Below are positions 4,504 to 58,265 of a stretch of DNA of 64,000 bases, in pieces. The position numbers were made by a program, and so were the translations under genes. Position 1 is the stretch's first letter, and each line of letters opens with the position of its first letter. The DNA lies in NCBI GenBank assembly GCA_977017645.1, contig OZ360225.1, positions 138,260,001 to 138,324,000 of the forward strand, read 5' to 3'. The notes beneath the pieces were generated by a model. The model was not told the DNA's origin. It searched no databases and saw only the letters and a list, made by a program, of their open reading frames with translations. Source of the stretch: Torpedo marmorata (taxonomy: Eukaryota).

Positions 4504-4543
<40 letters not shown>

Positions 4544-4644
4544 TCCCTTTCCCTCCCTCCCTCTGCTTCTCCCTCTGCCTCTTGCAATACCTCCCTCTCT
4601 CTCTCCCTCATCCTCCATTTCTTTCTTTTTGCCCCTTTCATTCT

Positions 4645-4776
4645 NNNNNNNNNNNNNNNNNNNNNNNNNNNNNNNNNNNNNNNNNNNNNNNNNNNNNNNN
4701 NNNNNNNNNNNNNNNNNNNNNNNNNNNNNNNNNNNNNNNNNNNNNNNNNNNNNNNNNNNNNNNNNNNNNNNNNNNN
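4645..4776. other. Assembly gap (132 N) next to a (CT)n tract
   Basis: N run preceded by CT-rich sequence 4460-4644. Confidence 0.99.
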
Positions 4777-4832
4777 TCCATTCAATACATTAAGCACAAG
4801 CACCTCGGTGAGATCTCTCTCGATCTTCTGTC

Positions 4833-6834: not shown

Positions 6835-7050
6835 CAATCTTCTGGAGGAACTCAGCGGGTCGAGCAGCATTAATGGGACAAAAAGAACAGCTGATGTTTC
6901 AACCTGAAACGTGTTATCACGACAAAGATAAGGAATTTTGGTTTGAAACGTCGACAATTCTTTTTCTCCCACTGATGCTGCTCGACCCGCTGAGTTCCTC
7001 CAGCAGATTGTGCCTGGCTTAAGATTCCTGCATCTGCATTCTCTTGGGTG
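6835..7050. mobile_element. Inverted pair of Penelope-type terminal-repeat fragments
   Basis: ctggaggaactcagcgggtcgagcagcat ... atgctgctcgacccgctgagttcctccag, then the aagattcctgcatctgca end motif. Confidence 0.7.
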
Positions 7051-8844: not shown

Positions 8845-9470
8845 GGTGCTCGGCAAAGCAGACGAGGTCATTTGGTCCAACTGGACCAATTGCATTTTCT
8901 ACATTGGTGAGGCTGAAGGCAGATTGAGAGACTTGCTTCATAGAGCACCTGCGCTCTGTCTGTGGGTCCAAGCTAAAACTTCCATTCGCCAACTATTTGA
9001 ATTCCCCACGTCATTCCTACACAAATATGACTCTCCTCGGATTTACCCTTTGCTAGGGTGAGGCTAAACATAAATTTGAGGAACAACTTATCATATTTCT
9101 CCTTGTCAGGCTTAAACCCAACATTAAATTTTCTAACTTTAGGTAATATCCCCACTACCATCCAGTTCCACTCTTTTCTTTACCTGCTTCTGTCCTATTT
9201 TTCTCTTTAACCTCCCCCCTCCCCTACCCCACGGTGGTCTCTCCCTCTACCTGTCCATCTCTCCCATCTTCTGTCCAGTATCACCTCAGCCCCTTCCCAA
9301 CTCCTCCCCCTCTTCCCCCTTTTCATATTTGATATCTCTCTTTCCCACTTTAGTCTTGATAAAGGGTCCTGACTGGAAAAGTTGGCTGAGCATTTATCTG
9401 CGTGGATGCTGCCTATTCCATTGAGCCCTCCAACTTCTCTTTGTTTACTCAAGATTCCAGCATCAGCAGT
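8845..9470 (+). mobile_element. Degraded Penelope-like element (GIY-YIG remnant plus terminal repeat)
   Basis: FYIGEAEGRL matches the YIGETxRRL endonuclease motif; pyrimidine-rich spacer; degenerate ttgataaagggtcctgac..gaaa end. Confidence 0.65.
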
Positions 9471-12420: not shown

Positions 12421-14521
12421 GATTCCCTTGGTATCCACAGATTTATTGATTTCTATGTTAAAATAATGAGTGACAGAGCCTCCAGATTCTCTGGGGGAGA
12501 GAATTCCAAAGATTCATCATCTCTACGTGAATAAATTTATCCTCATCCTGGTCCTAACTGGTTTTACCTTGATCTGAGACAGTGATCCCTGGTACTCAAC
12601 TCAGCTAGGGAAAACATAATTTCTGCATGTACCTTCTCCCGCCTCTCATCCTTCTCAACAGTCTATTCGCAGGACATGGCCTCCGTCCCTGGAACAATCT
12701 GATGAGCAAGACACTGCCGTCTCACCCAGGTCACTTGGAACTGCAGTAAGGCATCTCCAATGTACGGAAAGCCCGGTCACCAAAGCCATCACGCCGTTTG
12801 CCCTCCTAATTGTTTAATGTTGAATTTCGGTGACTTGTGTACAAGGTCCCTTTAACCTCAACACTCTCCGATTTCTCGTCACTTCAAACAGAAGGTTTGA
12901 TTTTTTTTTTGACACCAAATGCCTCACGTTCCCATCCCCTGCTCCAGCCACACAGCCCTCACCCGCCCGGGTCCTCCCTGCCACTACCCACTCCCCCCAC
13001 CCACACACTGCTCACACACACAGCCAGGGATCGTTGCCAAATTCTCGGCACTTGGCGTTAACTGGAATTAAACATCGTGGAGTTAATATTGATGTCAACA
13101 GGACCAAAAGTCACGGAGAGGAGGGTCCAAGCCAGAGCCACTGTGGGCGGGTGGGTCAACAACTGTTGACCAAGGGGCGGTGAGACGGCTCTGTAAGATG
13201 TGAGGGCGACGCCCTGAGATCCACGGCCGGTCCCAGAGGAAGGTTCCCGGCGGTCTCTCCACTCTTATCGGCTTTGGCCGCTCTATCAGCGAGCCAAGTG
13301 TGGAAAATGTGTCGTGGCCACTCGGAGCCGTAGATAGGCGGGCTCCAGGCTGCTGAAAAAAAATCTTCCCGGGGCTTATCAGCTCCTTCAGAGGCTCCAG
13401 GGTGCGCAGGAAGCGGCCTGTGTCTGGGCCGGGCACTTGATAAGGAGGCATTACTGGGAGACTGTTGTGGGTCACCGTGCCTGTGGAATGCAATCCGCCA
13501 GCCGAGCTCGGCACCAACTCGACACGACTTCCCCGCGGATCCCTCATTCAGCCCGGCTTTACCCGCGCTAAACACAAACTGGCGGAAGTCAACGGGTCAA
13601 GCAGCATCTGCGGCGTCCTGTGTTGTCTCCAGTCCACCCGCATTAATTAACTCAGCGCGCTGCCCGCTGGCCTTGATGGTCCGGTTGTGCGGTCCGCAGG
13701 ACTGACTTCCCCTAACCCTTCGACAACAACCTTTCCACCCTGAACTCCCACCCCCAATTTTGCGACCAGCGACATCCTGGGGCTTCCTCGGAGCAGGGAG
13801 ATCAGGCTGGAGTCTTCTCCCCAAGAAACAGATATTCCTGTCCCTTTCCCAGGGAATGGTCTATCCCATCAGATCCCAGAGAATCAACTACTCGGTTCCA
13901 GGGTATAGACCATGCGATTTCATCACCAGGGAATGGTCTATGTCACACTTTCTCATCATAAACCATCCCTTCCCAAGGAATGGGCCATCCTATCCCATCT
14001 CAAGGGAATGGTATATCCACACTATTCCAAGGAATGGACCATTCCGTCCCACTCCTGATAAAATAGGACACCCCCACCATCCCATTTTCAGGGAAATGAT
14101 CAGCACTGGACATTTCTGGGGAATGGACCATGCTTCCCTCTCCTCGGGCAGGAGATCACGTGGTACCATTACCGAGACATATTTCACACCATCACATTCC
14201 CAAGGAAGCAACGAACACCACCCCTATTCCATGGGAAATTAGGCCTTTCACATTCCAGAGGGGAAGAAAATCAATTCAACCCATTCCCAAGGGAACCTTT
14301 ACCATGGTCCAAATCCCAGTGGAACAATCCTATTCTCAGATCATTCTCATTTTAGGTCAGTAGATTAAATACATCGCCAAATGCAGCACAGCAGGATCCC
14401 ACAAGCAAACAGAGAAATGGTCGGTTTTGCTAGTGTGAATAAACGTTCACCTCTCGCACTCATTGGCCCCGCCCGCGGACAGTTCCCAACAGCGAGCGTC
14501 ACCCGCTGAGCCCCAACACTC

Positions 14522-14712
14522 TCTGCTGGAGGAACTCAGCGGGTCGAGCGGCATCAGTGGGAGAAGTAGAATTGGATGGATTGAATGTGGATGAAGGGCT
14601 CCGCCCCGAAACGTCGACCATTCTTTTTCTCCCACTGGCGCTGTTCGACCCGCTGAGTTCCTCCAGCAGGTTGTGTTTAGCTTCAGATACCAGCATCTGC
14701 AGTCTCCTGTGT
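14522..14712. mobile_element. Inverted pair of Penelope-type terminal-repeat fragments
   Basis: ~50-nt complementary arms around a gatgaaggg..cccgaaacgtc motif. Confidence 0.7.
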
Positions 14713-15719: not shown

Positions 15720-16392
15720 TTGGTTGCATCACTGACTGGTTTGCTAATTCGTGTGCCCAGCAACTCTCCTTCGTCCCCTTGGCGCCTACCCATGTTACCG
15801 CAGGAGATGCTCCATTTGCGCCCACTCCTCCCTCACCTCCATTCGGGGCCCCATACAGTCCTTCCAAGTGAAGCAACACTTCACTTGTGAATCTGCAGGA
15901 GTCATTACCGCATGATCCGGTGCTCGCTTTGTGGTCTCCTCTACATCAGAGAGACTGGGCGCAGACTGGGAGATTGCTTCATTGAGCACCTCGGCTCTGT
16001 CCACCACAATAGTGTGGATCTTCCAGTGGCCACCCATTTCAATTCCCTGGACCATTCCCTTGCTGACATGTCTTTCCATGGTCTCATGCACTGCCAGACT
16101 GAGATCATCTGCAAATTGGAGGAACAGCACCTCATCTTCTGTCTGGACAACCAGATGACATTAATATCGACTTCTCCGGTTTCCGAAACATCTCCCCCCC
16201 TCCCTACTTCTTCCCCTTCTCCTTTCCTCTAGTTCACTTCCCTTTTCCCTCTGTCTCCTTTCACAGAACCAAAATCAATTCTCACCTTTCTTTTTATCAT
16301 ATCTAATTAACACCTTTAGTCTGATGGCCTAGACTTCTCCCCCTCCCAGTCTTTAATTCAGACACCTGCCTGCTTTTTGCTTATATCTTGAA
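15720..16392 (+). mobile_element. Penelope-like element, GIY-YIG region and first part of terminal repeat (resumes 18794-18932)
   Basis: FQVKQHFTCES...IRCSLCGLLYIRETGRRLGDCFIEHL...VATHFN. The terminal repeat is interrupted at cttgaa|. Confidence 0.8.
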
Positions 16393-18793
16393 TCAGAATC
16401 AGAATCAAAATTTATTGTCATGAACGTGTCAGGAAATTTGTTGTTTTGCGGCAGCATCACAGTGCAAACATTTATATAAACCACATTACAAAATAAATGA
16501 AAATAGTGCAAGAAAAAGAAAAGACAAAGTAAAGTAGTGTCTATGATTCATTGTTCATTCAGAAATCTGTCCTTGTGCCACTGAGTGCTCATCTTCTGGC
16601 TCCTGTACCTTTTTCCCGATGGTAGCAGAGTGAAGAGGGCATTGCCTGGGTGGTGGGGGTCTTTGAGGATAGAGGCTGCTTTTTTAAGACACCGCCTCAT
16701 GTAGATGTCCTCGATGGAGTGAAGTCTGGTGCCTGTGATGTCACAGGCTGAGTTAACAACCCTCTGGAGTTTTTTCTTGTCCTGAGTGTAGGCACCTCCA
16801 TACCAGGCAGTGATACAACCAGCCAGAATGCTCTCCTGCACAGGTTTTTGAGAGTCTTCGGTGACATACCGAATTTTCTCAAACTCCTCACAAAGAATAG
16901 CCACTGGCGAGTCTTCTTCATGACTGCATCGACATGGAGAATCCAGGACAGTTCCTCAGAGATGTTGAAACTCAGGAATTTGAAGTTCTTGACCCTCTCC
17001 ACTGCTGACCCCTCGATGACGACTGATTCGTGTTCTCCTGACTTCCTCCTGAAGTCCACAATCATCTCCTTGGTTTTACTAATGTTGAGTGCAAGGTTGA
17101 TAGCGTGACACCACTCAACTAGCTGATCTATCTCCCTCCTATATGCTTCCTCATTGCCGTCTGTGATTCTGCCGACAATTGTGATGTCATCGGCAAATTT
17201 GTAGATAGCATTTGAATTGTGCCTGGCCACACAGTCATGGGTGTATAATGAGTAGAGCAGTGGACTAAGCACGCATCCTTGAGGTGCGCCTGTGTTGATA
17301 ATCAGTGAGGAGGAGACGTTGTTTCCAATTCGTACTGACTGTGGTCTTCCGATGAGAAAGTCAAGGATCCAGTTGCAGAGGGGGGTGCAGAGGCCCAAGG
17401 TTTGGAGCTTGTTGACCAGCACTGAGGGAATAATGGTATTGAAGGCTGAGCTGTAGTCGATGAAGAGCAGCCGTATGTATGAGTTTCTGTTGTCTAGGTG
17501 ATCCAGAGCAGAGTGGAGAGCCAGTGATATTGCATCTGCTGTGGAGCGATTGTGACAGTAGGCAAATTGCAGGGGATCCAGTCCTTTACTTGGGTATGTG
17601 TTAATTCTGTCCATGACCAACCTCTCAAAGCATTTCATCACAGTAGATGTGAGTGCTACTGGCGATAGTCATTGAGGCAACTCACTCTGCTCTTCTTGGG
17701 CACTGGGGTGATTGATGCCTTTTTGAAGCAGGTGGGAACCTCTGACTGCAGCAGTGAGAGATTGAAAATGTTCATGAACATTACGGCTAGTTGGTTGGCA
17801 CAGATTTTCAGTCCCTTGCCAGGTGCACCGTCAGGGCCTGACACCTTGTGAGGGTTCACCCTCTTGAAAGATGTTCTGAAGTCGGCCTCAGAGACAGATA
17901 TCACAGGGTTCTCAGCCCTTGCAGGGATTCTCAGGCACTGTTGAGTTCTCCTTCTCAAAGTGGGCATAGAAGGTGTTCAGCTCATCGGGTACTGAAGCAT
18001 CACAGCCATTTATGGTGTTCGACCTTGCTTTTTAGGATGTAATGGCCTGCAATCCCTGCCATAGCTGGCAAGTATCTGTCTCTGTCTATAGCTTCCTCCG
18101 GAATTGCTACTTTGTTGCTGAGATAGCCTTCCGCAGGTCGTACCTGGACCTCTTGTAGAGATCTGGATCACTGGCCTTAAACGTCCTTGATCTCACCCTC
18201 AGCAGGTTGCGAATCTTCTGATTCAACCAAGGCTTCTGGTTGGGGAACTCCCGGTATGTGCGCGTGGGCACACACTCGTCCACGCAGGATTTTATGAAGT
18301 CCGTGAGATATGTTGCATATTCATTCAGGTCTAAGGATAAGTCCTTGAATATGGTCCAGTCCACTGATTCAAAGGAATCCTGCAGGTGCTCCTCCACTTC
18401 CCTCGACCATACTTTCACGTCTTCACCACTGGTGCTGTGGTCCTCAGTCTCTGCTTGTACGCTAGGAGTAGAAATACAGCCAGGTGATCAGACTTGCCGA
18501 AGTGCAGTTGTGGGATGGCTTGGTAGGTGTTCTTCATGGTGGTGTAGCAGTGGTCAAGTGTGTTGGCTCCTCTGGTTTCACAGGTGACGTGCTGGTGGTA
18601 GTTGGTTAGAGACTTCTTCAGGTTGGCCTGATTGAAGTTCCCCACAATGATCAAGAAGGCATCAGAGTGTGCTATCTCGTGGCTGCTGATCACAGTGCTC
18701 AGTCCCTCCAGTGCTAGTCTGGTGTTAGCCTGAGGTGGAATGTACACTGCGACCAGGATGATGGCGGTGAACTCCCTCGGCAAATAGAATGGA
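16391..18793 (-). mobile_element. Rex1/Babar-clade LINE, 5'-truncated, disrupted ORF2 (APE end plus RT)
   Basis: [40 protein letters not shown]; APE TLDHCY..SDH; tail aataaa..(ttctga)n. Several frameshifts. Confidence 0.9.
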
Positions 18794-18932
18794 GAAGGGC
18801 TCAGGCCCGAAACATCGGTAATACAGTATATCTTTACCTCCTAGGGACGCTGCGAGACCGGCTGAGTTCCTCCAGCATTTCTATGTGTTTTTACTACAAT
18901 CACAGTGTCTGCAGACTTTCGTGTTTCACTCC

Positions 18933-19270
18933 AGAAAAAGTAACAAACCTGGCCAAGTCTCTCATTGGCACCGACATCCCATCCACTGAAGACATCTATG
19001 TTAGATGCTGCCTCAAGAAAGCAGCCAACATCATAAAGGACCCCCATCACCTTGGTCACAACCTCTTCTAACTGCCAGCTTCAGGCAGATGGTACAGAAA
19101 CCTGAAGTCTGGCACCTCCAGGTTCAAGAACAGTTTTTATCCAACAGCTATCAGGTTCTTGATCCTCCCCATACTACCCTAAACATAAAGTGTCAGGACC
19201 ACCAAAGGACCTGTCCACTTGACTGAAATGCCACATTTTTCTTGCACTAACTGTAACTGTGAATATTTAT
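18933..19270 (+). mobile_element. Rex-type LINE 3' fragment
   Basis: DIPSTEDIYVRCCLKKAANIIKDPHHLGH, homologous to the C-terminus of the 16391-18793 element. Confidence 0.75.
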
Positions 19271-33365: not shown

Positions 33366-34288
33366 TACAGGAGTAAAACACGAAAGTCTGCAAACACCAT
33401 GATTGAAGTAAAAACACAATGCTGGAGAAACTCAGCAGGTGAGACCGTGTACTTTATATAGCAAAGGTAAAGATACATAACCAATGTTTCAGGCTTGAGC
33501 CCTTCATAAAGGTATGAGCACAATGTAGGCAGGCACCCCAACAAAATTGTGGAGAGGAGGGGCAGGAGGAAGATCACAGGCCCACAGGCAGGAGGTAAAA
33601 TGTGAATAAGGGAGGGAGGGCGTAACAGCAAACAGGGGGAGGGGGGGTGGCTCTGTGAATGGAGAGGGAAGGGGGTAGAGAGCTGGAGGAGAAGGGAGAG
33701 TGAGTTAGCAGAAACCGGAGAAGTCAATGTTAATGCCATCTGGTTGGAGAGTGCCCAGATGGAATATTAGGTGTTGCTCCTCCAATTTAAGGGTAGCCTT
33801 GGTTTGACAGTACATGAGGCCATGGACCAATATGTCAGCATGGGAGTGGGGCAAAGAATTAAAACAATTGGCCACTGGGAGATCCCTGTCATTGATGTGG
33901 ACAGAGTGAAGGCGTTCAGCGAAGCGATCTCCCAGCCTGCGTCAGCCTATCCAATGTAGAGAAGGCCACAAAGGGAGCACCGGATGCAGTAGATGACTCC
34001 TGCAAATTCACAAGTGAAGTGTTGCTTCACTTGGAAGGGCTGTTTGGGGCCCCGAATGGTAGTGAGGGAGGAGGTGTGGGCGCAAGTGTGGCACGTCCTG
34101 TGGTCACAGGGGAAGGTGCCAAGGGGGCGACTGGTGGGAAGGGATGAGTGGACAAGGGAGTCATGGAGTGAGCCTGTGGGCCTGTGCTCCTCCCCCTGCC
34201 CCTCCACTCCACCATTTTGTTCCGGTGCCTGCCTACATTTTGCTCATATCTTGATGAAGGGTTAAAGCCCGAAATGTTGGTTATGTAC
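33366..34288 (-). mobile_element. Penelope-like element with inverted 5' terminal-repeat piece
   Basis: TFPCDHRTCHTC...FQVKQHFTCEFAGVIYCIRCSLCGLLYIG (GIY-YIG). Minus-strand terminal repeat 33370-33700, plus-strand copy 34170-34288. Confidence 0.85.
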
Positions 34289-39395: not shown

Positions 39396-39871
39396 ATTTG
39401 ATTATAGTATGTAATAGTTATCGTGATATTAACTGGACCGTCGGTTTTAATGACGTGTAGTTGAAGGAGATTTTTGGCTCAGGATATTGGGGAGAATTGT
39501 CTTGGGAGTGGACAAAGTCTTTGTTTAATATTTCACCCAAAGGAGAGGCCACAACAGAGAACATATAACATATAAATCTACAGCACAGTACAGTGCCAAC
39601 CAACAGTACAGCACTCTTCCGGTTCTACCTCTGCCAATCACACGACAACGTGTCAGCCAGCCTGGCTTTTTGAGCTCACATACCAGGAGAGGGATTTGCA
39701 CCTGACTCAAATCTCAAGTATAACCTTTGCCTATCTATCCCAGTCTTTCAAATTTCAATTGTCCCCACCCCAAGTGTTCACGGTCTTTTGGGGAGGGAGT
39801 TACAGAACTTCATTGTTGAGCTCACCCTTGAACTTGCGTGTCCTTGTTTGAGCTTTCAACAAGCCAAGTTA

Positions 39872-40228
39872 AACAAGAAAATTTGCAGATGCCGGGGTCG
39901 AGTGCAATACCCAACTGTGCTGGAGAAACTCAGTAGATCCCGCAACGTCCGTAGGAAGTGAAGGGTAACCAACGTTTCGGGCCGAGCCCTTCGTCAGTAA
40001 TTCTCTTTTACCCTCGCCCCTATTACCCCTGACCTATTAGCCTGTGCTTCCCCCTTTCCCCTCCCTCCCTCCTTTCCTCTCCTCTTCTCCCTCCCCAACA
40101 TTTTATTCTGGCGTCTATCCGTTTTTCCACATTCCCGACGAAGGGCCCAGGACCGAAACGGTGGTTATTCTTTACTTCCGATGGATGCTGCGTGATCTCT
40201 GAGTTTCTCCAGCACGTTTGGTTTTTGC
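39872..40228. mobile_element. Inverted pair of Penelope terminal repeats with hammerhead-like motifs
   Basis: Minus copy 39872-39997 and plus copy 39998-40228 share gctgagtttctccagcac-like and gacgaagggc..ccgaaacg sequence. Confidence 0.8.
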
Positions 40229-42289
40229 CCGGGCCAGTCCAGACGTCAGTTACATTGCTGGTCTGAAATTGCAAATAACGCAGAGAGTGAGGGACTAGTC
40301 CTTCTGCGAAGGACATATGTCAAGCACATGTGCTGCTCACCAGTCCTATTTTCTGTGCTGTTATAATTTCGTAAAATTCAACCTCATCACTATTCAATGC
40401 TGTGAACTCAAAACAACGAAAAATAAATACCGGTTTTGCAAACTCTCCTTGCAAGTTAACGTTTTAACGCCTGTGATCGTTCTGCCGCATCAGACCAACA
40501 TGACGGAGGCAGTGGAGAAGTTGGGCAGATTCAGGTGGGCTCATGGGGTTGTGTGGGAGTGCTCACCAAGGTCACTAAGCCAGCCACCTAACCGTGCAGA
40601 GACCGTATGGCGTGCAGGGGCACTGGAGCACCACCGCCGGTAGTACCCCCACCCTACCCACGTGGCGAACCCTCGTGATATGGAAATGATCGCCGATCGT
40701 TCACCACAAGGACGGCAGCGGCGGTCGGAGGCCGCAGCCAGTTTAGGTAGACAACTTGGTCGGCCTGAACGAGTTGGACCGAAGGGCCTGTATCCGTGCT
40801 GGCCCATGAGGGGCGGGCAAAAAAAACTGGGCCAGATGGGGTTTGAAGTACCTCGATGTTACATCAACACTGCATTTAACTGGGGGTCAGGTCCCCAGCT
40901 CACAAAAAGCAGGGCTAACCGAGCTCGGAGCAGACAATGCGGGGTCTTTAAAGAGAAAAAAAAGGAAGCAGCTAACCCAATCTGAGTTCTCGATTCGCCA
41001 TAATTCGATAAAGTCTGGCTTTGAAAGGTGAGCGGGCGTCGCGATGATAATGCAGCCATTTCATTAGCAGGACCCGAATTAAATCAAGGTCTTGTCCGCT
41101 GATTTATTGAGACACGGGGAAAGGCATTAGCGCACAAACTGCACTCAGGGTATCACTCATCCTCTCTTAAATATGTTTTCACTGACTACCACTCAGTAGT
41201 TTGGAGAGATTGCACCAACCGCGCCCGCATCGTTCCAATTACAGTCATAAGGAGCAGCCACCGTGCACACATGCAAAGCAGAGAGACGCGTTGAAAGTTC
41301 TACATTATTAATTTACATCGAAATTAACCTCCCCAGCCGCCAAATAATCTAAGGACAAGTTAATACAAGGGTTGAAATACACGGCTTGGAATGATTAGCG
41401 CAGAACCGCGAGCAGAGGCTGATTTGTGGATTAAGATGACGGAATTGGTTTAAAATAAACATTAAAGCGGAGACAAAGAGCGGCCTGGCGGCGCCCACTC
41501 CTCTGTGACTCAACCTCACAGCTCTCCACTTGATTCCAAGGGCTGAAGCCCTCTTGGCCGTCACCGGTACTATCCAATAAATCTCGCCGTGTTACAAAGT
41601 CTGGCACCCGATGAGTGTCCGGGGAAAATCCCGTGACGGCAGATGAGCGGCAAGGCCTTAATGAAGAGGTCGACTCGGCAGGTCAGGCAGCATCCAAGGA
41701 GAGAAATGGGCACTCAACATTTCGGGTCGGGGGCCTCATCTTCTTTCCAGCATCTGCAATTTCGTATGTTTGTCCAAATTCTGTAATTTACTGGGTAGAA
41801 CCCGTTTCTTCACTCGGTTACAGATGACGCTCACCGGCCAACCGGGTTAAACCTGACTGGTAGAAGAACCACTGTTGCAGCCGAGTGAAGCTGAACTCTC
41901 CATAGCCATCCCCAGCATCCCATTGCTTCTGATCTGCCCACGGATTTCCGGGGTCGGAAATCTGCACCTGAATTCCCCAGTCCCAGCTCTAGAGTGGGGA
42001 CGGGGAAATGCAGATGTTGGGGTGGCTCCAGGGCAAATTATTCCCCTTAGACCTGAATCAATAACCCTATTTGTCTCTTCACATATGTTGACTGACCAGC
42101 TAAATGTTTCTAGCATTTATACTCCTTCAATGTTTGTCTTTTAACAACCACCACTCAACAAATAGCCCCAAAACAGTTCACCCAGCCAACACTATACCCA
42201 GTCCAAAATACTGCCCAGACGAATACCAAGACCAGCCCAACAACACCTGACGAAGACCATACTCAGCTCAACACTATGCTCAGTCCAAC

Positions 42290-45160
42290 AACACACCCTG
42301 CCCTACTCTACACCCAGCGCTAATCCACACCCAGCCCTACTCTACACCCAGCACTACTCTACACCAGCCCTACTTTAAACCCAGCTATACTCAACACCCA
42401 GCCCCACTCCACACCCAGCGCAACTCTACACCTGTCCTACTCTACACCCAGCCCAACTGCACAACACGCAGCCCAACTCTACACCCAGCCCAACCACACT
42501 TCACCTAACCCAACCACACAACACCCAGCACTACTCTACACCCAGCCCTACTCTACACCCAGCCCAACTCTACACCCTGCCCTACTCAACACCCTGCCCT
42601 ACTCAACACCTAGCCCTACTCTACGCCCAGCACTACTCTACACCCAGCGCTACTCTACACCCAGCCCAACTCTACACCCTGCACTAGTCTACACCCAGCC
42701 CTTCTCTACATCCAGCCCCACTCTACACCCTGCCCTACTCTACACCCAGCACTACTCTACACCCAGCGCTACTCTACACCCAGCCCCACTCGACACCCTG
42801 CCCTACTCAACACCCTGCCCTACTCTACACCCACTGCTACTCGACACCCTGCCCTCCTCTACATCCACCACTACTCTACACCCAGCCCTACTCTACATCC
42901 AGCCCTACTCGACACCTTGCCATACTCTACACCCAGCACAACTCCACACCAGCCCTACTCTACACCCTGCCCTAGTCGACACCCTACCCTAGTCTACACC
43001 CAGCGCTACTCTACACCAGCCCTACTCTACACCCAGCCCTACTCTACACCCAGCACTACTCTACACCAGCCCTACTTTAAACCCAGCTATACTCAACACC
43101 CAGCCCCACTCCACACCCAGCACAACTCTACACCTGTCTACACCCAGCCCAACTGCACAACACGCAGCCCAACTCTACACCCAGCCCAACCACACTTCAC
43201 CTAACCCAACCACACAACACCCAGCACTACTCTACACCCAGCCCTACTCTACACCCAGCCCAACTCTACACCCTGCCCAACTCAACACCCTGCCCTACTC
43301 AACACCCAGCCCCACTCTACACCCAGCCCCACTCTACGCCCAGCCCAACTCTACACTCGCCCGACTCTACACCCAGCCCCACTCTACATCTTGTCTTACT
43401 CTATACTCAGCCATACACTACACCCAGCCCTACTCGACATCCAGCCCTCCACTACACCCAGCCCTACTCTACTTGCAGCCCCATTCTACACTCGCCCTAC
43501 TCTACACCCAGCCCCATTCTACACCTTGCCTTACTCTACACCCAGGCATACGCTACACCCAGCCATAAACTACACCCAGCCCCACGCTACACCTAGCCCT
43601 ACTCTACACGAAGCCCCTCTCTACACCCGGCCCCACTCTACACCCAGCCCTACTCTACACCCAGCCCCACTCTACATCCAGCCCTACTCAACACCCTGCC
43701 CTACTCAACACCCAGCCTCACTCTACACCCAGCCCCACTCTACGCCCAGCCCAACTCTACACTCGCCCGACTCTACACCCAGTCCCACTCTACATCTTGC
43801 CTTACTCTATACCCAGCCATACACTACACCCTGCCCTACTCTACACCCAGCCCTACTCTACACCCAGCCCTACTCTACACCCTGCCCTACTCTACACCCA
43901 GCCCTACTCGACATCCAGCCCTCCACTACACCCAGCCCTACTCTACTTTCAGTCCCACTCTACACTCGCCCTACTCTACACCCAGCCCCATTCTACACCT
44001 TGCCTTACTCTACACCCAGGCATACGCTACACCCAGCCATAAACTACACCCAGCCCCACGCTACACCCAGCCCTACTCTACACGCAGCCCCACTCTACAC
44101 CCAGCCCCACTCTACATCCAGCCCCACTCTACACCCAGCCCCACTCTACACCCAGCCCCACTCTACACCCAGCCCTACTCTACATCCAGCCCTACTCTGC
44201 ACCCAGCCCTACTCTACACCCAGCCCCACTCTACACCCAGCCCTACTCTACACCCAGCCCTACTCTACACCCAGCCCTACTCTACACCCAGCCCCACTCT
44301 ACACCCAGCCCTACTCTACACCCAGCCCCACTCTACACCCAGCCCTACTCTACACCCAGCCCCACTCTACACCCAGCCCTACTCTACACCCAGCCCTACT
44401 CTACACCCAGCCCTACTCTACACCCAGCCCTACTCTACACCCAGCCCTACTCTACACCCAGCCCTACTCTACACCCAGCCCCACTCTACACCCAGCCCTA
44501 CTCTACACCCAGCCCCACTCTACACCCAGCCCCTCTCTACACCCAGCCCTACTCTACACCCAGCCCCACTCTACACCCAGCCCCACTCTACACCCAGCCC
44601 CACTCTACATCCAGCCCTACTCTACACCCAGCCCTACTCTACACCCAGCCCTACTCTACACCCAGCCCCACTCTACATCCAGCCCTACTCTACACCCAGC
44701 CCTACTCTAAACCCAGCCCTACTCTACACCCAGCCCTACTCTACACCCAGTCCTACTCTACACCCAGCCCCACTCTACACCCAGCCCCACTCTACACCCA
44801 GCCCTACTCTACATCCAGCCCTACTCTACACCCAGCCCCACTCTACATCCAGCCCTACTCTACACCCAGCCCCACTCTACATCCAGCCCTACTCTACACC
44901 CAGCCCCACTCTACATCCAGCCCTACTCTACACCCTGCCCTATTCTACACCCAGCCCTACTCTACACCCAGCCCTACTCTACACCCAGCCCTACTCTACA
45001 CCCAGCCCTACTCTACATCCAGCCCCACTCTACATCCAGCCCCACTCTACATCCAGCCCCACTCTACATCCAGCCCTACTCTACACCCAGCCCTACTCTA
45101 CATCCAGCCCTACTCTACACCCTGCCCTACTCTACACCCAGCCCTACTCTACACCCAGCC
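42290..45160. repeat. 17-bp minisatellite, ~2.9 kb
   Basis: Unit ccagccctactctacac; degenerate at left, homogeneous at right. Confidence 0.95.
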
Positions 45161-48803: not shown

Positions 48804-48927
48804 ATGGAATACAGCAATACGAAGCCGCAGCTCTCATCCCGGGCTAATGCCTTCTCCATTGCAGCGCTGATATCATCGGGAAACTCCAAGGACAAGGAGC
48901 TGCAGGAGAACACAATCAAACCCCTCG
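48804..48927 (+). CDS. TBX20: T-box transcription factor TBX20, coding exon 1
   Basis: Strong Kozak (aacATGG). Translates MEYSNTKPQLSSRANAFSIAALISSG...ENTIKPL, the TBX20 N-terminus with eh1-like FSIAAL. Donor G|gtaagt at 48928; 124 nt, phase 1. Confidence 0.97.
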
Positions 48928-49321
48928 GTAAGTCAGGCCCTGCCCTGCTTGAGCCTCGCCGCTCACCTGCCAGAATGGTGCTGGAGCTGGTGAAAGAGTT
49001 GAGTCGTTGCGTGGTGGTGAGATGCGGGGGAAGGGGTGCTCCAGAACCGGACAGTCGCCATGCGATACCTGGCAAACTTAACTTTATTGAAAGGATTGCG
49101 ATGACCCGTGGTTTCTATGAAATGTTCCTGTGAGGCGTTTTGCTCAAAGCGGGTGGGGAGTCATGGCAGCGCGCGTCACGTTGGAGGGTCGCTCTCGGGT
49201 CTGGCCAATTGGAGAATGGTGCGGCGGTGGGTCTATGGAGCGGGGAGACCCGCGCTCAGCGCCTGATCCTATGCACTCACCTTAACAATTGCTTTCACGC
49301 GCCTTTTCTCCCACTGCACAG

Positions 49322-49553
49322 AACAATTTGTGGAGAAGTCTTCTTGTTCTCAACCCCTGGGTGATCTGGGCGGCCTGGAACTGGGAGATTACAGTAGCGG
49401 CGGCTCTCCGGCGTGCACCGAACCCCTCATCCCCACCACCCCCAGCGTCCCCAGCGCCGAAATGGCCAAGATCAGCTGCAACTTGGAAACCAAAGAACTG
49501 TGGGACAAGTTCCATGAGCTGGGCACGGAGATGATCATCACTAAATCCGGCAG
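49322..49553 (+). CDS. TBX20: TBX20 coding exon 2 (start of T-box)
   Basis: Acceptor gcacag|. (E)[13 protein letters not shown]...[10 protein letters not shown]...[24 protein letters not shown]. Donor AG|gtaggc; 232 nt, frame joins exons 1 and 3. Confidence 0.97.
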
Positions 49554-50509
49554 GTAGGCGATGGGGTTTCTTCCGCAGTCGGTTCACCAGCCCTTTAAAC
49601 TGGCGCTCTGTTGAAGTTTGAGGGAACGTTTCGTTCAAAACAAGGTCAAATCGCGGGACTGATTTATTTTAAACATGGGTTTGACTTCAGGGAACATTTT
49701 AAAAATGAGTGGTGAACCTTGATATTTCGTTTAATTCCGCTGCCGCGCTTGTTATTTCGTGGCGCTATGCTGAGCACCGAGAAAACCCCAAAACTAAATT
49801 GCTCCGAGCACAGGACGGCGATAAGCGAGGGACGGGTTTGTTTTGCAGATAGGTTAGTGAGGGGCGGCTGTGTCTGTGAGCAATGAAGCGCTCAATCTCA
49901 TTGTGATCCCGGTCACAACGAAAGCAGTTTGATTCGCACAGTAATCGGGAGAAGGAACAGAAAGTTTAAATCAGGAATTGTGTGGTAACAAATTCCAATT
50001 ATTTTTACGGCGACTATCGCAACTAATCTTTTCAAAATCATTGTGTTAAATGAACTAACAAAAGTAGTGTTGTAATAATTACATGTAATAATTTTGAAAA
50101 TTACAATATTTCGTATCAAGGCCAGCCAATTCTGTTAATGGGATCATTGTTATATGGTTGCCATAATGTCCGATCCGCTGCATCTCGCCCGACTCTCTGA
50201 GGAAGTGTGTTTCCGGGGCTCGGATCGGCTGCGATACCCGGAGGGGCAGGTGTTAGAGGCAGGAGTCGCTTCAAGGGGAAACACAACACGGGCAGATTAG
50301 AGCATGGAGAGAGAAGGGTTTACGTGGTTGTGGTGAAAGCGGAGCGAGATCATTCGTGGCTCCGCATCCTATCCGCTGGAAACCAAACCCGCAATCAGTG
50401 AGGATGCAGACGGCGCTTGCAGTGGGCAGAATGTTGACCTCCAGTCCCCGAAAGGGGATGGACGGGGGAGGGGTGGTGAGAGGGTCTATGGGGGGCGGGG
50501 AACGGGGGT

Positions 50510-51980
50510 CTGGTGAGCGGGTCTGTGGATGGGCGGTGAGCGGGTCTGTGGATGGGCGGTGAGCGGGTCTGTGGATGGGCGGTGAGCGGGTCTGTGGATG
50601 GTGGGTGGACGGGTCTGTGGATGGGCGGTGAGCGGGTCTGTGGATGGTGGGTGGACGGGTCTGTGGATGGGCGGTGAGCGGGTCTGTGGATGGTGGGTGA
50701 GCGGGTCTGTGGATGGGCGGTGAGCGGGTCTGTGGATGGGCGGTGAGCGGATCTGTGGATGGTGGGTGGACGGGTCTGTGGATGGGCGGTGAGCGGGTCT
50801 GTGGATGGGCGGTGAGCGGGTCTGTGGATGGTAGGTGGACGGGTCTGTGGATGGACGGTGAGCGGGTCTGTGGATGGGCGGTGAGCGGGTCTGTGGATGG
50901 GCGGTGAGCGGGTCTGTGGATGGGCGGTGAGCGGGTCTGTGGATGGGCGGTGAGCGGGTCTGTGGATGGTGGGTGAGCGGGTCTGTGGATGGGCGGTGAG
51001 CGGGTCTGTGGATGGGCGGTGAGCGGGTCTGTGGATGGTGGGTGGATGGGTCTGTGGATGGGCGGTGAGCGGGTCTGTGGATGGGCGGTGAGCGGGTCTG
51101 TGGATGGTGGGTGGACGGGTCTGTGGGGGGTGGGTGAGCGGGTCTGTGGGAAGTGGGTCTATGGGGGGACGGGGGGCTGGTGAGCGGGTCTGTGGGGGGG
51201 GGTTGTGAGCGGGTCTGTGGGGGGGGTTGTGAGCGGGTCTGTGGGTGAAGGTAAAGGTTCCATTATTGTCACATAATACTACATTTAGAATGTAACATAC
51301 ATGAAATTCTTTAATTTTTGTCTACCGTAAGGCAGACAGAGGGTCACTACTTTGTCCAACACCCCTCACAGAAACCTACAGCACCTGGTGTTCCTTGGTG
51401 GTCTCCCCTCCAAGTACTGACCAGTCCTGTGCCTGCTTAGTTTCCGAGATCAGACAATCCCAGTCGTATTCAGGCTATTAGGTGCTGGGGTGGTGAACGG
51501 GTCTGTGGGGGTGGATGAGCGGGTCTGGGAAGGTTGGGTGGGCGGGTCTGTGGAGGGGGCGGTGAGCGGGTCTGTGGGGGGCGGTGAGCGGGTCTGTGGG
51601 GGGCGGTGAGCGGGTTTGTGGGGGGTGATGAGCGAGTGTGGGGGTGGGTGGGTGGCGGGTCTGTGGGGGGGGCGGTGAGCGGGTCTGTGGGGGGGCGGTG
51701 AGCGGGTCTGTGGGGGGGTCGGTGAGCGGGTCTGTGGGGGGGGCGGTGAGCGGGTCTGTGGGGGGGGCGGTGAGCGGGTCTGTGGGGGGGGCGGGGGAGC
51801 GGGTCTGTGGGGGGGGCGGGGGAGCGGGTCAGTGGGGGGGCGGGGGAGCGGGTCTGTGGGTGGACGATGAGCGGGTCTGTGGGGGGGGGGCGGGGGAGCG
51901 GGTCTGTGGGGGGGGGCGGTGAGCGGGTCTGTGGGGGGGCAGGTGATCGGGTGTGTGAGGGGTGGCGAGCGGGTCTGTGG
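50510..51980. repeat. G-rich ~23-bp minisatellite in TBX20 intron 2, interrupted by a SINE
   Basis: Unit ggtgagcgggtctgtggatgggc, drifting to ...gtgggggggc. Confidence 0.9.
51247..51482 (-). mobile_element. 5S rRNA-derived SINE (SINE3-type)
   Basis: Reverse complement of 51372-51482 reads ..gtctgatctcggaaactaagcagg..tggtcagtacttggaggggagaccaccaaggaacaccaggtgctgtaggttt (5S-like), followed by a ~125-nt body ending gtgacaataatggaacctttaccttc. Confidence 0.85.
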
Positions 51981-52243
51981 GGAAGGTGGACGGGGGATGG
52001 TGTGCGGGTCCGAGGGACGGGGTTGCGGTGGTGAACCGGTCGGCGGGACAGGAATGCGGACACGTTTATATTTCATTCGGACTTGCTCATGACCCTGCTG
52101 AGAATTACATTCGGACTGAACACTTGCTGTTTCCCCGCCGCCTCCGGCTGCCCCGTTCACGGTTATCGGTTGTACGCGGAGACGCGCTGATCTGTGGGAT
52201 GGCTGGTTTTAAAGGGTTGTTCCCTTCCTGTGGTCTGTTTCAG

Positions 52244-52408
52244 GAGAATGTTTCCAACTATCCGCGTCTCCCTCTCTGGAGTGGATTCCGAGGCCAAGTA
52301 CATCGTGTTGATGGACATCGTGGCGGTAGACAACAAGCGTTATCGCTACGCCTATCATCGCTCTTCCTGGCTGGTAGCGGGCAAAGCTGATCCGCCGCTT
52401 CCTGCAAG
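52244..52408 (+). CDS. TBX20: TBX20 coding exon 3
   Basis: Acceptor tttcag|. [55 protein letters not shown]. Donor AG|gtgcgg; 165 nt. Confidence 0.97.
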
Positions 52409-53073
52409 GTGCGGCCCCTTGAGTGCTCTTTGCTATCGTTGGAGCGGCTCAATGCCCAGAATCACCTTCCCTTAGTCCCTCCCACCCCAGAAAATGTAAA
52501 TCAAATCTCTGCCGAAACTGGAGATGTTCAATAAAAAAAGAATATGCCGGAAACAGAAGGCTCTTCGACCTGAATCATTGACTGGTTCTTTCTCCACAGA
52601 CGCTGCTTGTCCTGCCGAGTGTTTCCAGCATTTTCTGTTTTTATTTCGGGTCTGACAGCTCCCGGAGCCGGTTTGGTGAGTCCAAAACGGGCAGTTGGGA
52701 AAGGTTTCCTTAGGGAAAACCGTGAGAAAATTTCCATGTGTTGGTTTGCTGAGAAGATATCTCCCAGCAACCAAAACTCCGAATTAAAGAGTCATTAACT
52801 TGCTAGTCATAAAATATACTGAACGAGGAGCAACAGCGGGATAAAAAAATATTGAGCGCACCCCCGTTATCCCAGTCACTCTCATCAAGAACTAACCCTA
52901 AGGTATCATACCTCTAACCACCCTAAACTAAATCAGACTAACCAAATTGCCTTAACGTCACTCACTCTGGCCCCAATCGCCCTAACCACAATCATCATCC
53001 CCAATCACACTGGCCTCATTATCGTCCTACCCCCGATCCCAATCTCTTTAAAACTCAATCCAATCAACCTACC

Positions 53074-54918
53074 AATAGACAATAGGTGCAGGAGTAGGCC
53101 ATTCGGCCCTTCGAGCCAGCACCGCCATTCACTGTGATCATGGCTGATCATCCACTATCAGTACCCGTTCTTGCCTTCTCCCCATAACCCTTGACTCCGC
53201 TATCTTTAAGAGCTCTATCTAACTCTTTCTTGAAAACATCCAGAGAATTGTCCTCCACCGCCTTCTGAGGCAGAGCATTCCACAGATCCACAACTCTCTG
53301 GGTGAAAATGTTTTTCCTCAACTCCGTTCTAAATGGCCTACTCCTTATTCTTAAACTGTGGCCTCTGGTTCTGGACTCTCCTAACGTCGGGAACATGTTT
53401 CCTGCCTCTAGTGTGTCCAATCCCTTAATAATCTTATATGTTTCAATCAGATCCCCTCTCATCCTTCTAAATTCCAGTGTATACAAGCCCAATCGCTCCA
53501 ATCTTTCTACATATGACAGTCCCGCCATCCCGGGAATTAACCTCGTGAACCTACGCTGCACTCCCTCAATAGCAAGAATATCTTTCCTCAAACCTGGAGA
53601 CCAAAACTGCACACAATACTCCAGGTGTGGTCTCACCAGGGCCCTGTACAACTGCAGAAGGACCTCCCTGCTCCTATACTCAACTCCCCTTGTTATGAAG
53701 GCCAACATGCCATTAGCTTTCTTCACTGCCTGCTGTACCTGCATGCTTACTTTCATTGACTGATGAACAAGGACACCTAGATCTCGTTGTACTTCCCCTT
53801 TTCCTAACTTGACACCATTCAGATAGTAATCCACCTCCCTGTTCTTGCCACCAAAGTGGATAACCTCACATTTATCCACAAAAAACTGCATCTGCCCACT
53901 CACCCAACCTGTCCAAGTCACCCTGCATTCTCATAACATCCTCCTCACATTTCACACTGCCACCCAGCTTCGTGTCATCTGCAAATCTTCTAATGTTACT
54001 TTTAATCCTTTCATCTAAATTATTAATGTATATTGTAAACAGCTGTGGTCCCAGCACCAAGCCTTGCAGTACCCAACTAGTCACTGCCTGCCATTCTGAA
54101 AGGGACCCATTAATCCCTATTCTTTGTTTCCTGTCTGCCAACCAATTTTCTATCCATGTCAGTATCCTACTCCTAATACCATGTGCTCTAATTTTGCCCA
54201 CTAATCTCCTATGTGGGAGCTTATCAAAGGCTTTCTGAAAGTCCAGGTACACTACATCAACTGGCTCTCCCTTGTCCATTTTCCTCGTTACATCCTCAGA
54301 AAATTCCAATGATTAGTCAAGCATGATTTCCCCTTCCTAAATCCATGCTGACTCGGACCGATCCTGTTACTGCTATCCGAATGTGCTGCTATTTAATCTT
54401 TTATAATTGCCTCCAGCATCTTCCCCACCACTGATGTCAGGCTAACTGGTCTATAATTCCGTTTTCTCTCTCTCCCTCCTTTCTTAAAAAGTGGGATAAC
54501 ATTAGCTACCCTCCAATCCACAGGAACTGATCCTGAATCTGTAGAACATTGGAAAATGATTACCAATGCGTCCACGATTTCTAGAGCCACCTCCTTAAGT
54601 ACACTTGGATGCAGACCATCAGGTCCTGGGGATTTATCAGCCTTTAGTCCCATCAGTCTACCCATAACCATTTTCTGCCTAATGTGAATTTCCTTCAGTT
54701 CCTCCGTTACCCTAGGTCCTCTGTCCACTATTACATCTGGGAGGTTATTTGTGTCTTCCCTAGTGAAGACAGATCCAAAGTACCTGTTCAACTCTTCTGC
54801 CATTTCCTTGTTCCCCATAATAATTTCACCCGTTTCTGTCTTCAAGGGCCCAACTTTGAACTTAACTAACTTTTCCTCTTCACATACCCAAAGAAGCTTT
54901 TACTATCCTCCTTTATAT
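53074..54918 (-). mobile_element. CR1 (HER1-like) LINE, 5'-truncated, antisense in TBX20 intron 3
   Basis: Three ORF pieces: KSPGPDGLHP..NYRPVSLTSVVGK, VYLDFQKAFD..FADDTK, RPHLEYCVQFWSP. (ctattgt) tail; few disablements. Confidence 0.92.
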
Positions 54919-55450
54919 TACCCTGACTGTATTCCCCTCAACCCAGTCTTCAAATCATCTTAATGCGCCCTCACCACAACCCCATCACTCTAACCATAAC
55001 TTGAACCGCTCTGCCCTGCCCGGAATAGCCCCAATCACTGCAACTCCTCTCACCCTGACCCTAACCTTGGATCAGTGTGATTCTTAGGGAACTGTGTCAA
55101 AGCAGAACTCCCAACCGAGGCTCTGAGAATTGACCGAGTTCCCGAATTGCAGTGAAATAAGGCGAAGGTTCGCATTCCACTTGTAAATATTAATACAATC
55201 AAAACTACGGCGGTCGAGAGAGAGAGAGCAGCCCGTCGAGGCTGAATGGGAGTAGTTCAAGTCGCATCTTTTTTAGTCTTTGCAATGCTCCTGAATCCAT
55301 TGATCCCGATTCCAGAATCCGCTGAACTGGTCCTGATGCCTTGGTCGGTCCTTCTGCCACCACTCTCCGTCCCCTCGATCCTACCATTCCCGGCTGCCCC
55401 TGTTCCTGCTTCACCAGGCCTGTTCCCTGACCCTCGTCTCCTGATTTCAG

Positions 55451-55559
55451 GCTGTATGTGCACCCAGACTGTCCGTTCACGGGGGAGCAACTTTCGAAAC
55501 AAATGGTCTCCTTCGAGAAGGTGAAACTCACCAACAACGAGTTGGATCAACACGGCCAC
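55451..55559 (+). CDS. TBX20: TBX20 coding exon 4
   Basis: Acceptor tttcag|. LYVHPDCPFTGEQLSKQMVSFEKVKLTNNELDQHGH. Donor |gtgagt; 109 nt. Confidence 0.97.
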
Positions 55560-55989
55560 GTGAGTTGTCCTACGTTTGTTCAGGGAAATCCCAGGTGCCG
55601 GAGCCGGACAACAATGAACAAATGGTCTCCCTGTCATCTGTTATCCGGCCGGGCGTTGTCCGCGGGCACGGTCCGAGGATCACCGGGCTCTTTGACAACC
55701 CGAGCTCCGGTCAGTGTAGAAGCAGAAATCCACAACCTGCTGCACGGCACCGGTCCCTCAGTTCGCCGCTCGGACACTGTTGCAATCACCAATCTAACCC
55801 CACACACCAGGAGCTCGCCACCATGAGCAGACTCCCCGCAATTTATTCACCCGGTTACACTGGTTAATTCTCACCTAAATTACTCCTCACTGAATCCGCA
55901 CTAGGGGTGGCATCGTGGGCCGGTTGACAGTGTTCGGGTGTCGAATATTCCCCACCACTGCCCCTTTCACCTGACTCCTTCGCCTCACT

Positions 55990-56195
55990 AACTGTGTGCG
56001 GGTGTGTATGTACAGGTGTGCAAAACCAAAGGTGCATCTGTAGATATATATGGACAGGTGTGTGTAGAGATCTATAGATATGTGTATACATCTACGAATG
56101 TGTGTACAGATGCCTATGGATATGTGTGTACAGGTGTGTGTGCAGATAGATGTCTGTGTACCCGCGCGCACGTGTGTGTATGTATGTGTATACGG
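55990..56195. repeat. GT/AT-rich low-complexity tract
   Basis: Direct reading. Confidence 0.7.
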
Positions 56196-56595
56196 GATTA
56201 ACATGTTAAGGATGCTGTTGGATATAATTCGGAAACGTGTGAATTTCCTCCAGTTTATAACTTTTAATTGAACTGCCACTTAAGCAGCAAATGCTAAAGA
56301 TTAACGACGGCGGAAATATCTCTGGTGTTGGAGCAGTCCGCTGCTTAAGGAACTGTTTTCTTGACTGGGCACCTCGGCGTTCCCCTGGCGGGGATTGGGT
56401 GAGATTAGGTTCAGGGGATCTGGGCTAGAAGGAGACCTGCTCTCATCAGCCGGAGATCATCAGCATCACTGGTAATTGCTTCTGGCTTCGTCCCCCCCGT
56501 CCAGTCCCACCCCAGCCTAGGCTCATACTGTTGGGTGCGGCTTGGGGAAGGCTCCAGCCTTGTCAGTGGATAACGGTGATGATATCAATCCACAG

Positions 56596-56754
56596 ATAAT
56601 TCTGAACTCCATGCACAAGTACCAGCCACGGGTCCACATCATCAGGAAGAAAGACCACACCGCATCCCTGGTCAACCTCAAATCGGAGGAGTTCCGCACC
56701 TTCATCTTCCCAGAGACCGTTTTCACTGCAGTGACCGCCTACCAGAACCAACTG
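56596..56754 (+). CDS. TBX20: TBX20 coding exon 5
   Basis: Acceptor ccacag|. [53 protein letters not shown]. Donor |gtgagt; 159 nt. Confidence 0.97.
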
Positions 56755-57779
56755 GTGAGTCGCCGGATACCGGCTCCGATCCGGACTCGCAGCGGGGCTG
56801 ACGCCGATCCGGTCGGGCGTTAACCCGCAAAGAGCCCGGAATCCTTATAAATATAATGAATTAATTCTTTGAAACAAGAGGTCACCGGGACAGAGGTCAC
56901 CGGGACAGAGGTCACCGGGACAGAGGCCACGGCGACAAGGGGTCACCGGCCAGTGGTCACCCGGAAAGAGGTCAGTGATTAATACGGCCTTTTTGGATGT
57001 TACTGGTGGGATCAGAGAGTGTGATTTGTTTCAAGGGCCAGAGGGAAAGGGAGCGCATATTAACCGCGGGTTTGTCACCCGGGGAAAGTCGTGGGGAAAA
57101 TGCAGACTCTGCAAATCTGAAGTCAAAACAGAAAGTGCTGGAAACACTCAGCAGGTCAGGCAGCATCTGTGGAGGAGACACAGAGTCAATGTTTCAGGGA
57201 GACGACTCTTCCCCAGAAATGGTCCTGGTAAGTCGCAATGACCTGTGTATAACCTGGCCTCAAGCGGTTGAACTCCTGGGCGCGCTGGTGCTGTGTCGCG
57301 ATCTCAGCCACCTCCCCACAGACAGGACCTGGGGAAGTGGGAGTAACAAATGAGAAAGGTATATAGAAGGCCGACGGTGGCGCCACGTCGGTCCTTACTA
57401 CGACTCCAGAGAACCGGATTCGATCCGATCTCCCGGGCTGTCTGCGTGGAGACCGCACGATCACCCTGTGATCGCGTGGTGTTACCCTGGCCTCCTCCCA
57501 CCTCCCAAAGACATCCCGGTCGATGGGTTCATTTGCCTCATTAAATTCCACAGGCACATGGAGAATGTGGGTGGGAATGAGGAGACAAGGGTTTACAGGG
57601 GAATTAGTGGGGGATGGTGATCCGGCAGAGACTCGATGGGCCTATTACGTAAATATGAAAAAATCCGCTAAAGAACATCAGTGACTTTCACCGATTCCGC
57701 CAGCCTTATAACTCTCCATCCTGTCACACTCCCGGGACGGTAACCGAAACAGGAACGGTGGGGGGGGTTCGAGAGTTCT

Positions 57780-58002
57780 GAGTGGCACGGTTAGCGTAGC
57801 GGTTAGTGCAACCCGGCTCGAATCCGGACTGTCTGTAAGGAGTTTGTACGACCTCCCTGTGTCTGCGTGGGTTTACTCAGGGTGCTCCCGGTTTCCTCCC
57901 ACCCTTCAAATCGTAGGGGGTTGTAGGTTAATTGGGGTATTTGGGCGGCACGGGCTCGTGGTCCGGAAGGGCCTGTTACCGTGCTGGATGTCTACATTAA
58001 AA
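57780..58002 (+). mobile_element. tRNA-derived V-SINE in intron 5 (an older copy at ~57370-57642)
   Basis: A-box-like ttagcgtagcgg, B-box-like gctcgaatcc, V-domain gtctgcgtgggttt..gggtgctcccggtttcctccc, CR1-type tail gaagggcctgttaccgtgctg. Confidence 0.75.
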
Positions 58003-58188
58003 CAAATATTGACCGTCCCTCTCTCTCCCCACAGCCGCTGCCTGACTTGCAGACTGTTTCCAGCATGTGTTGTTGATTCAGGTTTCCAGCATCTGCAATT
58101 TGTTTGTTTTTTTAATTCATAATGTGTAGATTTGTCTGTGCGCCAAGCGCTTGACAGCGAGGTTTCCCGTTGTGTTTCTGTCCTGCAG

Positions 58189-58265
58189 ATTACTAAACTA
58201 AAAATCGACAGTAACCCTTTCGCCAAAGGTTTCCGGGACTCCTCCCGACTCACGGATATGGAGAG
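58189..58265 (+). CDS. TBX20: TBX20 coding exon 6 (end of T-box); gene continues beyond window
   Basis: Acceptor cctgcag|. ITKLKIDSNPFAKGFRDSSRLTDME(R). Donor AG|gtacgg; 77 nt. Not in the ORF track, read manually. Confidence 0.96.

Follow-up and report, generated by a model that had tools for sequence, protein, structure and literature searches.

The segment at about 39866-40228 of the analysed window, a stretch of 64,000 nucleotides from the genome of Torpedo marmorata, is very probably made up of two truncated 3' ends of a Neptune-type Penelope-like element (PLE) joined head to head. Both ends bear a minimal hammerhead motif, and the one whose core is intact, located in the shorter arm, is likely an inactive fossil. 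The sequence-only reading had interpreted such repeats of the window as Penelope termini bearing minimal type I hammerheads. This interpretation is supported by the present analysis, and the underlying observation of a hammerhead motif is confirmed as real and correctly read.

The minus strand of positions 39997-39966 reads CUGACGA-A-GGGC(UCG)GCCC-GAAA-CG-UU-GGUUA, which agrees letter by letter with the hammerhead core described before. The positions C3, U4, G5, A6, N7, G8 and A9, G12, A13, A14 and A15.1 as well as U16.1 and H17 are all present in the left arm, as are the claimed 4-bp stem II, the extra A after A9 and the palindromic ACGU in place of stem III. Likewise, stem II contains the G10.1-C11.1 pair and positions 15.2-16.2 are palindromic; the loop of stem II (stem at 39989-39979(-)) comprises 3 nt versus 4 nt in the family. 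The 5' strand of stem I is absent, as had been noted, and closure at the 2.1-1.1 pair fails with an A opposite G1.1, a configuration on which hammerhead candidates were rejected by Perreault et al. (PMC3088659). The type I descriptor search proposed earlier, applied to the window in a relaxed form with a paired stem II, yielded three matches, two of which, at 39997(-) and 34251(+), belong to the family, whereas the third, at 6701(-), was not placed in it by nhmmer. No hammerhead was present among the 11 Rfam matches with E<=5 in the window. The miRNA matches of Rfam at 14523 were discarded, as they merely reflect the fold-back at that position. The coordinates of the relevant features are compiled in Table 1.

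Table 1. Features of the PLE termini and of the neighbouring gene in the 64,000-nucleotide window.
Feature	Position	Strand	Basis or remark
Minimal type I hammerhead motif	39966..39997	-	Sequence reading, descriptor, fold analysis
Parts of left-arm motif: core; extra A; stem II	39997-39991; 39990; 39989-39979	-	
Parts of left-arm motif: GAAA; then CG palindrome; U16.1-U17	39978-39975;; 39972-39971	-	
Predicted cut site of left-arm motif	Between 39971 and 39970	-	
Left arm: 5'-truncated PLE terminus, starts ~4 nt before hammerhead core, bears long end (tail)	39866..40001	-	nhmmer 40001-39905
Right arm: pyrimidine-rich PLE 3' UTR remnant, defective hammerhead and short end	40002..40228	+	Alignment to subfamily copies
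Defective hammerhead, right arm	40136..40168	+	U4C, stem II mismatch, U16.1 to G
Second inverted PLE unit, U3 lineage	33416..34287	.	GIY-YIG remnant 34183-33711(-)
PLE terminus split within core by RT-bearing insertion	16360..18935	+	GIY-YIG remnant upstream at 15781-16145
Fold-back PLE stump, older lineage	14506..14686	.	Partial hammerhead 14588-14620(+)
Terminus of oldest lineage, U3-A8 core	9346..9439	+	GIY-YIG remnant 8937-9140
T-box gene, TBX20-like (context)	48804..58239	+	Likely first coding exon from ~48804; T-box exons 49477, 52242, 55440, 56578, 58186

The unit consists of a short arm that starts just before the core and carries a long tail, and a longer arm with a short end. Its right boundary was retained from the earlier reading (39872..40228), whereas the left one had to be extended to about 39866, where the tail ends. 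Positions 39904-40001 and 40131-40228 are inverted copies of each other with 81% identity over 99 nt. The left arm runs 63 nt beyond the anchor and falls into the long-end class; the right arm is of the short-end class and aligns from 40001-40041 onward to 15 of 70 sampled subfamily copies with 70-79% identity, 7 of these 15 being linked to an open reading frame (ORF). The unit itself contains no ORF remnant, and a head-to-tail repeat of hammerheads was not detected at 39600-40500, the arrangement being that of an inverted pair. A search of the scanned boundaries for a target-site duplication was negative, so that it is the layout only that points to a single insertion event for both arms; in PLEs such duplications frequently cannot be recognized.

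A profile built from 84 distinct copies was used with nhmmer and detected 16 termini in the window and none in the reversed window; family termini are more numerous in the window than expected by chance. All of the related motifs listed previously (34245, 33476-33516, 40131, 14588, 9351 and 16381/18794) exist, and each of them is defective, as had been stated. The copy at 34245(+) has the stem I CAUAUC/GGUUAUG and a UUGAUGA core with a palindrome decayed to AUGU, that at 33516(-) has lost G5, that at 40131(+) shows U4C, one stem II mismatch and the loss of U16.1, and the 5' core of the copy at 14588(+) is cut away. The copy at 9351(+) displays a U3-A8 core and a predicted stem I of 7 bp and has lost the palindrome, and the 16381/18794 copy is interrupted by an RT-bearing insertion. 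Three copies in the window besides the 39866-40228 unit adjoin endonuclease remnants. Additionally, two related RT-bearing LINE-like fragments with 85% identity are located at 16395-17525 and 26886-28036, one of which interrupts a PLE hammerhead.

The termini at 39866-40228 originate from a PLE, since 17 of the 70 subfamily termini follow the GIY-YIG end of a same-strand PLE ORF and full elements in the genome of T. marmorata bear the motif at both ends in partial tandem. The Penelope origin put forward earlier is thereby borne out; one of the 17 endonuclease ends (L184) is probably tied to a neighbouring young copy instead. In one relative (L009), a PLE-type RT fragment is located directly upstream of the terminus. 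This 150-aa fragment matched no Pfam family; its use as a query resulted in 85,486 first-look candidates in the genome, 150 of which were scored. In 15 of the 16 fetched stretches with long frames, the ORF is followed directly, in the same orientation, by a family terminus. The element L092 is complete and comprises a truncated copy, followed by an ORF of 1237 aa with the motif again past the stop codon, and the distance from the core to the first ATG downstream is about 180 nt. The ORF revealed Pfam matches to RT (E 6e-6) and GIY-YIG (E 5e-4), both below the cut-offs, and contains a CX4CXXC linker. According to the available part of PMC8557442, a CX2-5CxxC linker between RT and EN marks the Neptune clade, and by its linker and domain order alone the present element would be of Neptune type. 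Those ORFs that are intact come from a younger lineage, sister to the subfamily at 39866-40228, and an intact autonomous element of that exact subfamily was not found.

The young Neptune-type family (L091-L106, L207-L236) is characterized by near-identical long ORFs, a fixed U3-G8 hammerhead core and 76,583 exact genome matches to a 33-nt tail motif, and it was probably active recently. Its main ORF contains a repetitive Pro/Ala-rich insert of variable length and is overlapped on the same strand by a second open frame of 410-750 codons in L091-L106 (e.g. L092:2610-4268). Large head-to-head pairs with near-full PLE ORFs were observed in L098 and L105. Moreover, the arms of young fold-back stumps (L218/L219, L221/L222, L228 and L232/L233) join at or near the hammerhead, in one case via the short palindrome that surrounds GAAACG, a pattern suggestive of microhomology-mediated template switching.

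To describe the family genome-wide, 40 stretches of 10 kb at round coordinates of large contigs were searched, resulting in 40 termini per 400 kb (reversed controls 0), which extrapolates to about 600,000 decayed termini in the 6.2-Gb genome. Clustering of 359 distinct termini yielded nine groups, and all group majority sequences retain UGANRA, the extra A, the 4-bp stem II, GAAA, U16.1 and H17. Position 3 is occupied by U in six groups and by C in three, the oldest group leans to U3-A8 (3 of 5 parsed copies), and the 3-8 pair occurs as C-G, U-G and U-A. When core, stem II and palindrome were counted as exact motifs, with stem I left out, 84,304 copies with U3-G8 were obtained versus 1,489 with C3-G8; reversed patterns gave none. 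The U3-G8 core would be slower than the canonical one, and Lunse et al. 2017 may already treat U3 cores. Within the literature outside subscription journals, neither a report specific to PLE hammerheads of sharks and rays or to U3-G8 activity nor a published rate for the U3-G8 core was found. The oldest lineage (window 9346-9439; L091:2358-2401; L252:1322-1365) tends to an AGUC/GACU-type stem I and a GGGU/ACCY-type stem II, representing compensatory variants within one genome.

The pairing of the stems was examined in 55 in-register copies selected from the 359 termini by a filter that required the core letters and favoured stem II pairing. Among these selected copies, 87.7% of the cells pair and the 2.1-1.1 pair forms in 46. 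Two-sided changes at 2.2-1.2, 2.3-1.3 and the closing pair of stem II were found in 15 cells of the filter-biased set versus 6.3 after shuffling (0 of 500 shuffles), whereas the number of pairs with a two-sided change stayed at the level of the shuffled data in the same set (3 versus 3.2; 395 of 500). The two-sided changes derive from one or two old lineages. Since the copies were preselected on core letters and stem II pairing, these data carry modest weight as support for a ribozyme fold.

The copy with the intact core belongs to the minority C3 lineage, where even a complete stem I pairs poorly. Between stem I and the core, C3 copies have one base fewer than U3 copies; only 1-2 contiguous stem I pairs form when the strand is GGUUA, and 4 of 5 pairs form in a variant with GACUG. 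The subfamily ending in GGUUACC accounts for 1,329 exact matches, including 277 with CUGAYGA, 25 with CCGAYGA and 3 with CCAAYGA. These counts favour CUGA, so that C3-U4 represents the true lineage state and CpG decay (CCG to CUG) is ruled out as the origin of the intact core. CCGA was over-represented in right-arm relatives (17 of 21 parsed), which was attributed to a bias from the query.

The subfamily sample comprised 70 of 1,749 copies, chosen by the pattern downstream of the cut site and all from one contig. The ends are distributed bimodally, with 36 short, 32 long and 2 intermediate ones, and the 39866-40228 unit contains one of each class. An inverted partner was present upstream in 24 and downstream in 5 of the 70 copies. 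The 5' ends lie within 2 nt of the cut site in 3 of the 70 old and 0 of 30 young copies, and 0-12 nt before the core in 16 of the 70 old and 4 of the 30 young copies. The excess of starts before the core has a rough binomial p of about 0.004 (47 short old copies), a value that end-mapping on diverged copies and upstream lineage differences could inflate. The idea that the ribozyme cuts the template was rejected, as no accumulation of 5' ends is seen at the cut site.

Among the 35 of the 70 copies that span the motif, including two mis-registered by indels, the catalytic bases show CpG decay: G8 was retained in 20 and G12 in 19 copies, both being part of a CpG and ranking with the least conserved positions. 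From U4 onward, the remaining catalytic bases were retained in 29-34 copies and three loop-II bases in 30-31, and judged by these counts the subfamily appears to decay like neutral DNA. The core is intact in 4 of the 35 copies, and core, palindrome and stem II together in one. The survival of an intact core among the 16 local termini needs no selection.

The left-arm motif is probably not active in cleavage, since closure of its stem I is not possible and, in any read-through RNA, the two arms are predicted to pair with each other. The best local fold predicted for the motif pairs the core with the palindrome (-13.1 kcal/mol), and on both strands positions 39872-40228 are predicted to form one long hairpin (about -134 kcal/mol; z -5.4 and -7.5); an RNA initiated at the junction would not be caught in this hairpin. 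The right arm cannot act as dimer partner, as it is located on the opposite strand and defective. The completeness of core, stem II and palindrome, equalled by only one of the 35 relatives, counts against the fossil reading. In the proposed origin, one insertion event would have given rise to both arms, with reverse transcription initiating at two sites a short distance downstream of the motif and so generating the long and short ends, and the RNA template would not have been cut by the ribozyme. The motif of the parent element may be a weak ribozyme, dependent on a dimer and/or the protein of the element, and would not define the template.

The neighbouring T-box gene, which we take to be TBX20-like from its N-terminal and T-box sequence, has TBX5 as its best PDB match, and its T-box exons span 49477 to 58239 on the plus strand. 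The hammerhead unit is located about 8.6 kb upstream of its start codon, with the intact core on the opposite strand. The earlier notion that copies are scattered around this regulator needs refinement: all copies named there lie upstream of the start codon (~48804) and neither surround nor enter the gene, and nothing ties them to it. Three old degenerate PLE termini without an intact core are present in its introns (52556-52634, 57132-57219 and 58004-58070). An intron also contains a tandem repeat at 50456-52025 with a degenerate 5S rRNA-like match (51373-51489(-), 35.3 bits, below the gathering score of 38). Two long minisatellite arrays are located at 42261-45186, between the hammerhead unit and the start codon, and at 60514-62142.

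One alternative is that the copy functions, or has been domesticated, as a ribozyme and cleaves an antisense or upstream transcript close to the TBX20-like gene with a partner motif in trans. In its favour, core, stem II and ACGU palindrome are complete, the start codon is about 8.6 kb away and the exact motifs (about 1,489 C3 and 84,304 U3) could serve as partners. Such activity is barely conceivable in view of the missing 2.1-1.1 pair, the predicted arm-to-arm hairpin, the slow decay that leaves intact cores in 4 of 35 relatives and the dense occurrence of termini everywhere (40 per 400 kb); with such a density throughout the genome, the proximity to a gene is expected. It is very unlikely that the unit is a non-autonomous fold-back element or retrozyme spreading as such. 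Inverted partners are indeed common (24 of 70), 16 of 70 copies begin 0-12 nt before the core, and the available part of bioRxiv 2026.07.22.740005 reports PLE-derived retrozymes in vertebrates, one chondrichthyan included, but the unit is not part of a tandem array, junctions vary between copies, many copies grade into ORF-bearing fragments and a target-site duplication was not found.

An incidental likeness to hammerheads, with the motif being a conserved protein-binding or promoter element instead of a ribozyme fold, is extremely unlikely. The prevalence of U3 over C3 in most lineages, the weak stem I in several of them and the shuffle-level number of pairs with two-sided change (3 versus 3.2) would fit this explanation. 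All lineage majorities, however, retain the hammerhead positions named above. Both partners have changed at 2.2-1.2, at 2.3-1.3 and at the pair that closes stem II, and C-G, U-G and U-A are all found at 3-8. Furthermore, a near-identical layout is printed for a coral Neptune element (PMC4209133, available part), and the motif of an Anolis PLE cleaves on addition of protein (PMC11167929, available part). A more open, though still unlikely, proposal is that a weak hammerhead is maintained on purpose in the PLE family, where it would serve as a folded switch gated by protein, or as a binding site, and not as a template cutter. In the young amplified lineages a closed stem I would then go together with a U3-G8 wobble core (about 84,000 exact copies), the lineage at 39866-40228 being one base shorter with a canonical C3-G8 core and a disrupted stem I, and these natural one-base variants would provide a direct test of the purpose of PLE hammerheads.

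According to the available parts of PMC8557442 and PMC11167929, this purpose is still an open question. The 39866-40228 unit itself is of little importance, being one among an extrapolated 600,000 or so decayed termini. The family matters modestly, being apparently recent and very large, with a fixed wobble core and C3-G8 and U3-A8 sister lineages. Its intact ORFs suit protein-assisted assays, and the family-level wobble core is the sole part meriting experiment.

Comparison with known systems relates to the available parts of the cited reports. In the Neptune-clade EN+ PLEs of Craig et al. 2021 (PMC8557442), RT, a CX2-5CxxC linker, a C-terminal GIY-YIG domain and a partial tandem pLTR are found as in the present family, as are an inverted 5'-truncated copy and a tail at one end only, whereas the 39866-40228 unit itself lacks an ORF. 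The Anolis Poseidon element PAc of Frangieh et al. 2024 (PMC11167929) likewise carries a hammerhead, with a C3-G8 core, in its pLTR, and two RT start sites define its tail. Uncut RNA is its main template and cleavage needs protein, which matches the mechanism proposed here for the parent element; its ORF begins inside stem II, unlike that of L092. Non-LTR retrozymes share the type I hammerhead, the relationship to PLEs and a very high copy number, with 126,247 motifs in axolotl, but form head-to-tail arrays of 150-450 bp instead of an inverted pair (PMC7229834; bioRxiv 2026.07.22.740005).

The closest counterpart is provided by the minimal hammerheads in pLTRs of metazoan PLEs published by Cervera and De la Pena 2014 (PMC4209133), for which cleavage as dimers has been described (PMC4209133; review PMC6765202). 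The assignment to the minimal type I class made by the sequence-only reading fits their consensus: CUGANGA, an extra base after A9, G10.1-C11.1, no stem III, palindromic 15.2-16.2 positions and a short stem I are shared, as is the occurrence mostly as single copies on truncated PLEs with opposite-strand pairs 100-700 bp apart. The Acropora digitifera Neptune row of that report equals the present motif in core and GGGC stem II, and U3-G8 and U3-A8 are printed for Saccoglossus(1) and Schistosoma, respectively. In contrast, U3-G8 dominates here (84,304 versus 1,489 C3-G8), the counts are far above the 4,000-9,000 reported for coelacanth and Xenopus, and the left-arm copy is devoid of stem I. Cartilaginous fish are absent from the table and alignment in the available part of PMC4209133. 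The 39866-40228 unit is a new instance of this published class.
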